Origin: Escherichia phage WPEC1
Reading direction: 5' to 3' (one strand)
Length of the DNA: 64,000 bases
Sequence record: PV659873.1
The notes under the pieces are model-generated. The model was not told the origin of the DNA. It ran no database searches and was given only the letters and a program-made list of their open reading frames with translations. This document shows positions 16,239-17,033 of the stretch, piece after piece. Within the stretch, counting starts at the first letter, position 1, and each line of letters begins with the position of its first letter. The position numbers were made by a program, and so were the translations under genes.

Positions 16239-17033
16239 ATGCATACCGAGAGAGACTTGCAACTCTTGTGGTGGGAAGTGATGCAGGAAATAAAAGAAGA
16301 TTTTCCTGTTTACTACAACATGTTACGTGAAGCAGGATATAAAGCTTGTGTTAGAAACAAAGTGAATAACTCTTTCGGTTGGTGCAACTACCGAGATAAA
16401 ATTGTTGTTGTAAATTGGCACTTGCATAAGAACTCTACAAGAGATATGATCGTGGATACAATGAAGCACGAAATTGCTCATGCTATTGATGGTTGTATGG
16501 GTAAGTTTAGTAGACACGGTGCTCATTGGCAAAAACTGGCAGCAGAATTAGGAGCTAATCCTAAAGCCACTTCCAAAGAGCCGTTGAACCACGAATATAA
16601 ATATGTTCTTGTTCTGGTAGATAGGTTTGCGACAAGATGTGTTAGAGGTTATAATCGTAAACCTAATCGCATGTACCCAGGTAAGCAACCTAATATGTGG
16701 TTGAAATCAGATAAAGAAGGGACCGAAGGAAAATTATGGTTGTATAAATGGGACGATTGGGTTAAAGTAGCTAAAGAGTACGGTGTTTCACCATATATAA
16801 GAAATGCAGAAGAGGAGAATGAACCTCTCTTGGGGCTTTGCCCCTCCTCCTTGTTATTTTTAACACCCCTCTCCGAAAGGTTAGGGGCTTTTTTCTTTTT
16901 CATGCTTGCAATTGTATATCATTTTGTGATAAGATCAGATATGAGGAGGATAAAATATGCGCAATTTTGTAGCTGTTGTTGCAGCAAATACGCTCATTTC
17001 AGGCTTCTTCGGACCACCAGTAGCTGCTTTTAA
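16239..17033 (+). CDS. SprT-like zinc metallopeptidase; annotated ORF probably over-extended at 3' end
   Basis: HEIAH (HExxH) motif; frame has no stop after ...NAEEENE (about 16823) and reads through two hairpin/T-run elements and into repeat unit 1. Confidence 0.45.
   Translation: MHTERDLQLLWWEVMQEIKEDFPVYYNMLREAGYKACVRNKVNNSFGWCNYRDKIVVVNWHLHKNSTRDMIVDTMKHEIAHAIDGCMGKFSRHGAHWQKLAAELGANPKATSKEPLNHEYKYVLVLVDRFATRCVRGYNRKPNRMYPGKQPNMWLKSDKEGTEGKLWLYKWDDWVKVAKEYGVSPYIRNAEEENEPLLGLCPSSLLFLTPLSERLGAFFFFMLAIVYHFVIRSDMRRIKYAQFCSCCCSKYAHFRLLRTTSSCF
16747..16823. repeat. inverted-repeat arm (target segment) of repeat locus 2
   Basis: 77 bp encoding WDDWVKVAKEYGVSPYIRNAEEENE of the SprT-like ORF; exact reverse complement at 17051-17127 and, 75 bp of it, at 17209-17283. 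Confidence 0.9.
16832..16899 (+). terminator. two terminator-like hairpins with T-runs
   Basis: GGGGC-ttt-GCCCC then CCCCT-12 nt-AGGGG followed by TTTTTTCTTTTT; located inside the extended SprT-like ORF frame. Confidence 0.4.
16906..16935 (+). promoter_or_regulatory. sigma70-like promoter (putative)
   Basis: TTGCAA, 17 nt spacer, TG-n-TAAGAT; precedes RBS AGGAGG and ATG 16957. Confidence 0.3.

Follow-up and report, generated by a model that had tools for sequence, protein, structure and literature searches.

Phapecoctaviruses (phAPEC8-like, Stephanstirmvirinae) carry an SprT-like gene whose last bases are shared with the gene that follows it. In phAPEC8, gp056—annotated from a later start, at 190 aa—closes with GAA GAA TGA, and its stop codon overlaps the ATG of gp057, a TelA-like gene labeled "tellurite resistance," as ATGA. 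WPEC6 retains this junction intact: its CDS0232 ends in EEENEE and a stop, has the 196 aa of the native protein, and shows the same ATGA overlap with telA. Across about 120 related phages, the gene likewise stops one codon past ENE, at 196 aa, the terminal residue being E or K.

A second system relevant to this locus is computational. In a de Bruijn graph built with k = 77, each branch of a SNP spans 2k + 1 = 155 nt; where two SNPs lie a distance d apart, the edge that connects them measures 2k + 1 − d, or 149 nt for d = 6. Neighboring edges share k bases, and long edges end one base before a polymorphic site. The value k = 77 is the largest SPAdes default for 150-nt reads.

We analyzed a 64,000-nt stretch of the Escherichia phage WPEC1 record PV659873.1, hereafter the window, which consists of Phapecoctavirus DNA and holds an SprT-like ORF that continues far past ENE. 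From the geometry of the pieces surrounding this ORF, we conclude with high confidence that the deposited sequence is a concatenation of k = 77 de Bruijn edges and that the lost SprT stop is a by-product of it. The assembler, perhaps SPAdes, and the manner of concatenation are inferred. Coordinates are collected in Table 1.

Table 1. Features of the window with their positions, strands, and phAPEC8 counterparts
Feature	Position	Strand	Remarks
Block	1–3122		phAPEC8 74294 to 71173 (blastn)
Second join, same construction as the sprT join	3046–3432	.	Terminal 77-mer of block 1–3122 plus two probable 155-nt allele edges
Block	3493–6820		phAPEC8 132062 to 128740 (blastn)
Block (unitig carrying sprT)	7572–16823		phAPEC8 127952 to 118707 (blastn)
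Predicted SprT-like metallopeptidase gene, genuine part	16239–16823	+	Codons 1–195 of the native 196
Terminal 77-mer of unitig 7572–16823	16747–16823	+	Ends one base before the first polymorphic position
Probable 149-nt edge from a distant locus	16824–16972	+	phAPEC8 61660–61808 (blastn)
SprT extension, probably artefactual, 69 codons plus stop through foreign DNA	16824–17033	+	No homolog, no PHROG
Chimeric 48-aa ORF, probable artefact	16957–17103	+	Genuine gp122 start MRNFV, then antisense telA/sprT
Unit 1, probable 155-nt SNP-bubble edge, sprT 3′ end plus telA 5′ start	16973–17127	−	Allele GAA AAA TGA (ENEK, then stop)
Unit 2, probable 155-nt SNP-bubble edge, same sprT/telA junction	17128–17282	−	Allele GAA GAA CGA
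Next large unitig	17283–43110	+	phAPEC8 7352–31918; far from sprT in canonical genomes
Block	43112–52369		phAPEC8 40648–50226 (blastn)
Block	52525–63641		phAPEC8 74747–85863 (blastn)

A Native C Terminus at the Breakpoint

The ORF at 16239–17033 (+) translates to 264 aa: genuine SprT sequence through YIRNAEEENE, ending at 16823, followed by 69 codons and a TAA stop at 17031–17033. An earlier note on this DNA, made from the letters alone, had reported that the frame reads beyond its expected end after NAEEENE, and that observation holds. The genuine part is 100% identical to WPEC6 (L007 2640–3224). The ORF matches the PF10263 SprT-like domain at residues 31–107 (35.9 bits against a gathering cutoff of 25.6), contains the HExxH zinc-binding motif as HEIAH (residues 77–81), and matches phrog_6445 at 1.5e-63. 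By these matches, the gene is predicted to encode an SprT-like zinc metallopeptidase.

Homologs locate the native end. About 120 phage records match window positions 15600–16823 at 90 to 100% identity, and the alignment ends at 16823 in every one of them; in a tblastn search with the 264-aa product, none of 210 phage records aligned beyond residue 195. On this comparison, the real SprT is the 196-aa form, with EEENE(E/K) as its last residues and an ATGA overlap with the TelA-like gene. The earlier note had placed the native C terminus at the breakpoint, which is right to within one residue, as judged from WPEC6 and other phapecoctaviruses. It had also named homologs with the same long extension as the finding that would overturn its reading, and none was seen among the 210 records.

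Pieces Joined After Position 16823

The 149-nt segment that begins at the breakpoint corresponds to the intergenic region after gp123. It contains two hairpins and a ribosome-binding site (RBS) and extends five codons (MRNFV) into gp122. The polymorphic position that would come after 16823 belongs to the sprT stop/telA start region. Units 1 and 2 map to this region (phAPEC8 about 118626–118783, reverse orientation), and in the unit 2 allele the sprT stop and the telA ATG are both altered. The first gene of the block beyond them lies at 17287–17655.

Two pairs of inverted-repeat arms, 16744–16823/17051–17130 (80 nt, 99%) and 16749–16823/17209–17283 (75 nt, 100%), each have a left arm that ends exactly at 16823. 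The reverse-complement copies had been described as ending at the GAA of ENE. Homology to the window's SprT does stop there, but the units themselves run on: they take in the last native codon and its stop and extend ~25 codons into telA. The native SprT stop now sits reverse-complemented inside them.

Compared with phAPEC8 by blastn, the window has non-collinear joins at 3122, 3432, 16823, 17282, 43110, 52369, and 52524, and several of these interrupt genes, among them that of the gp110 minor head protein, at 3122. At the second join listed in Table 1, allele edges 3123–3277 and 3278–3432 come from the gp110-like minor head protein gene. Where the main sequence is ACT ATT, one reads ACT CTT (I to L) and the other CCT ATT (T to P), and after them comes an unrelated block from ref ~132 kb.

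Other joins differ in form. At 43110/43111, two large blocks abut directly (phAPEC8 31918 and 40647), and ~8.7 kb of the canonical genome—dTDP-rhamnose genes, a PhoH-like gene, a lysozyme, and an HslV-like peptidase—is missing; a chimeric minus-strand ORF of 141 aa (42784–43209) arises at this join. In WPEC4, the block skipped at this point is attached to sprT. A lone 155-nt piece at 52370–52524 comprises an ATPase gene 3′ end and terminator (phAPEC8 ~140030–140184, reverse strand) and is flanked by an exonuclease region (ref 50226) and tail genes (ref 74747).

Five further stretches (6821–7571, 18545–19089, 20330–20543, 21012–21763, and 63642–63647) are without a phAPEC8 counterpart or mark small deletions. 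Among them are the N-terminal part of a 448-aa ORF (6795–8141) and the absence of gp095, an endo-N-acetylneuraminidase-like tail protein (ref 85864–88789). These phAPEC8-unmatched stretches look like ordinary lineage variation, not assembly joins.

Geometry of the Short Pieces

The short pieces at the joins have nearly uniform lengths: 155 nt in five of six and 149 nt in the sixth. Taken as reverse complements, units 1 and 2 each show one mismatch to native WPEC6, and in both it falls at index 77 of 155, the exact center (G to A in unit 1, T to C in unit 2). The gp110 units each carry three mismatches to phAPEC8, one of them at index 77. Mutually they differ at two bases only, and the index-77 base in each is one of these; the remaining two phAPEC8 mismatches are common to both units and look like lineage divergence. 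The piece at 52370–52524 matches the WPEC2, WPEC4, and WPEC6 records at 100% identity and so offers no central SNP to compare. A variant base thus occupies the exact center in all four testable 155-nt pieces, and the 149-nt piece has variable bases at indices 71 and 77.

The ends of the pieces show the same constant. Reverse-complementing the last 77 nt of the adjacent unit gives exactly the last 77 nt of the block, both for the block ending at 16823 and for that ending at 3122. At sprT, the segment 16747–16823 stands in this relation to unit 1, and its last 74 nt likewise match the end of unit 2. Piece length, variant position, shared k-base ends, and permuted block ends all agree with what concatenated k = 77 edges would produce.

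The order of the pieces follows neither length nor reference position in any simple way, and the allele edges are placed near the block to which they belong. Since random concatenation does not predict this last feature, an ordering by mapping or by graph neighbors must be assumed.

Block Ends Reused Across Sibling Records

Blocks of the window that are 100% identical to WPEC2, WPEC4, and WPEC6 occur in those records in different orders. The sprT end itself is joined differently from record to record: to ref 61660 in the window, directly to ref 40642 in WPEC4 (PV682947.1), and natively in WPEC6. WPEC4 has the same break at 16823 with another false tail, ILTGSYKKVLT and a stop, annotated as a 206-aa CDS (L001 4225). 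WPEC2 also breaks at 16823.

In WPEC4, positions 42100–44400 (L003 1500–3800) form ~2.3 kb made only of 74- to 80-nt and 149- to 153-nt pieces, from ref 349–503, 7274–7426, 40565–40724, 61660–61808, and 118704–118783. All four allele combinations of the 149-nt piece are present in WPEC4, each 149 nt long. In the record, the ~2.3-kb stretch is annotated as many tiny hypothetical proteins.

These pieces predict where large blocks should begin and end. The 153-nt pieces (ref 7274–7426), with SNPs at 7349 and 7351, imply a block start at 7352, as is found at window 17283. From a 152-nt piece (ref 40569–40720), one block end at 40642 and one block start at 40647 are expected; the former is where WPEC4 attaches sprT, and the latter is found at window position 43111. 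Because the predicted ends are seen across records, the same unitig ends are permuted among them.

The search tables for WPEC2 (PV691511) list 23–25 matching places vs. 2–4 in normal genomes, and they suggest that this record has content similar to the WPEC4 stretch. WPEC records measure 155–159 kb. Most of the other phapecoctaviruses listed have about 145–152 kb, with one at 156 kb, and the size of the WPEC records is in keeping with redundant allele edges and with overlaps left unmerged. A literature search on WPEC2, WPEC4, WPEC6, or host EC3.18 returned nothing relevant.

Origin of the Join

The pattern can be accounted for by the following course of events. In the sprT stop/telA start overlap, two bases 3 nt apart would have varied within the phage stock. 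These two bases would have branched the graph, so that the sprT unitig ended on the last invariant base, 16823, six bases short of the stop codon's end. The record would then have been built from graph edges (unitigs or contigs) that were misordered and misoriented, with their 77-nt overlaps left unmerged. In that order, the sprT unitig would be followed by the 149-nt gp123/gp122 edge, the two reversed 155-nt minor-allele sprT/telA edges, and the 26-kb unitig. The "repeat" would be the native sprT/telA junction in its two minor-allele branches, and the SprT frame would have stayed open for 69 codons through the pasted material by chance.

The earlier note had proposed that the event that created the repeat also displaced the stop codon. 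One part of this survives, as the same discontinuity parts the gene from its stop; a biological event is not supported, and we reject it on the unit sizes, the central variants, the 77-nt overlaps, and the permuted block ends in the sibling records. Stated in full, the biological alternative is a real phage rearrangement, in which a fold-back or template switch at the sprT end produced an inverted tandem duplication and a genuine extended SprT. It draws on the inverted repeat and tandem units present in the sequence as given, on the mosaic nature of phage genomes, and on the break at the same position in WPEC2 and WPEC4. Even so, we consider it very improbable: the units measure exactly 2k + 1 with the variant central, the 149-nt piece comes from 57 kb away, the geometry is identical at the unrelated locus 3046–3432, and blocks are permuted in WPEC2, WPEC4, and WPEC6 with joins that cut structural genes.

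The joins themselves argue the same way. Microhomology was sought at ten of them and none was found (0–1 nt of homology). A 25-mer across 16823/16824 had no match in IMG/VR, metagenome contigs, or GTDB genome contigs, and no public collection that was searched has the join; the native sprT/telA junction is present in an independent 153-kb IMG/VR contig. A fold-back inversion would be expected to have adjacent arms or a local spacer, with microhomology, and here the spacer contains the 149-nt piece from ref 61660–61808. A recombination hot spot at the sprT stop was a further candidate; it was set aside, the common breakpoint of WPEC2, WPEC4, and the window being a k-mer boundary beside polymorphic bases.

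A second alternative places the joins in the library: ligation or amplification chimeras, assembled faithfully, would leave the joins in some molecules and not in the phage. The blunt joins without microhomology resemble ligation chimeras. Chimeras of this kind should, however, arise at random positions and with random lengths, not as 155- and 149-nt pieces centered on polymorphic bases, and they would not give ends at k-mer boundaries in several records; we hold this origin to be highly unlikely.

Displaced Elements Within the Extension

Concatenated edges would also explain what the extension contains. RNA folding of 16815–16910 (z = −2.3) yields a first hairpin, GGGGC-UUU-GCCCC, and a second, CCCCU..AGGGG, with a U-run behind it. 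A consensus scan of 16824–16956 reported no terminator (0 sites) and no promoter, its loop and tail rules for terminators excluding the hairpins that folding reveals. The earlier note's two hairpins with T-runs are therefore borne out by folding, with the U-run on the second, but go unflagged as terminators by the scan. Its promoter-like region stays an impression, as the scan flagged none, although the RBS and gp122 start in the region are genuine: GAGGAGG-N7-ATG at 16944–16959 is the gene start of phAPEC8 gp122. By their match to the reference, the hairpins and the gene start are read as real elements that belong to the gp123/gp122 intergenic region. A promoter at ~16905–16935 driving an antisense RNA to the sprT 3′ end was also entertained; it was dropped, given that the segment is phAPEC8 61660–61808 and that the scan finds no promoter in it.

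The 69-aa tail has no PHROG match, an exact-protein look-up found no record of the 264-aa product, and the chimeric 48-aa ORF has no Pfam match. The conservation or family support expected of a genuine C-terminal extension or programmed read-through was not found among the 210 records or in PHROG. The earlier description of the extension as non-native is thus upheld, by its foreign DNA as well as by the homolog search. That the ORF is a natural long SprT isoform—a lineage-specific C-terminal extension, or a stop loss with functional read-through—is refuted by the homolog comparison and has a negligible chance of being right: the frame is open for 69 codons and one unit allele, GAA GAA CGA, lacks a stop codon, but the extension, with its codons taken from terminator hairpins, an RBS, and antisense telA/sprT, has neither a family match nor a homolog that shares it and would not follow from the stop-less allele, which in its native context adds only six residues (ERQVHF, then a stop).

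A Possible Polymorphism at the sprT/telA Overlap

Three alleles are found at the sprT stop/telA start: GAA GAA TGA, the main one, in WPEC6 and phAPEC8; GAA AAA TGA; and GAA GAA CGA. The variant sites lie at window 17047/17050 and 17205/17208 and correspond, in the sense direction, to the opening bases of the last sprT codon and of the stop codon. At both sprT/telA and gp110, the two variant bases are spaced 3 nt apart, each on a first codon position.

We tentatively entertain, as possible rather than probable, that this polymorphism is real, with one subpopulation losing the sprT stop and the telA start through T to C and a second one carrying a terminal E to K change. The T to C change turns TGA into CGA in sprT and ATG into ACG in the overlapping telA frame. 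If so, SprT would be six residues longer (ending EEENEERQVHF, then a stop), translation of TelA would have to begin from ACG or from a Met farther downstream, and a standing variant would lie at a 4-nt gene overlap that couples sprT and telA. Alternatively, the variants may be systematic sequencing or PCR errors that survived in the graph. The polymorphism itself is possibly the sole biological residue of the feature.

For the rest, the significance is one of quality control only. No biological interpretation is warranted for the SprT ORF in its extended form, for the "repeat," for the terminator and promoter elements that were displaced, or for the small chimeric ORFs around 16.8–17.3 kb and 3.0–3.4 kb. 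The same problem affects at least two other public records, WPEC4 (examined directly) and WPEC2 (judged from search tables), in whose annotations spurious tiny "hypothetical proteins" occur by the dozen, along with chimeric gene ends. A piece length of 2k + 1 with a central variant base offers a fast, sequence-only test for artefacts of this class.

Comparison with Known Systems

Up to the breakpoint, the locus is an ordinary Phapecoctavirus one. Residues 1–195 of the ORF are 99 to 100% identical to the SprT-like proteins of phAPEC8 (gp056, YP_007348578.1) and WPEC6 (XXK93241.1), with which it has in common HEIAH, the SprT-like domain, and the upstream genes gp055, gp054, and the membrane protein gene gp052. 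The difference begins at the last position, where 69 unrelated residues replace the final residue of the Phapecoctavirus protein.

A biological fold-back (inverted duplication) offers one point of likeness, the inverted copy of sequence adjacent to the breakpoint. Unlike a fold-back, the window has a foreign 149-nt piece between the arms, two alleles in tandem, lengths fixed by k, and no microhomology. With unmerged de Bruijn edges strung into a pseudo-genome, it shares the 2k + 1 pieces, the central variants, and the 77-nt shared ends; it differs from a plain concatenated-edge misassembly in that its joins have no Ns and some of its pieces are reverse-complemented.
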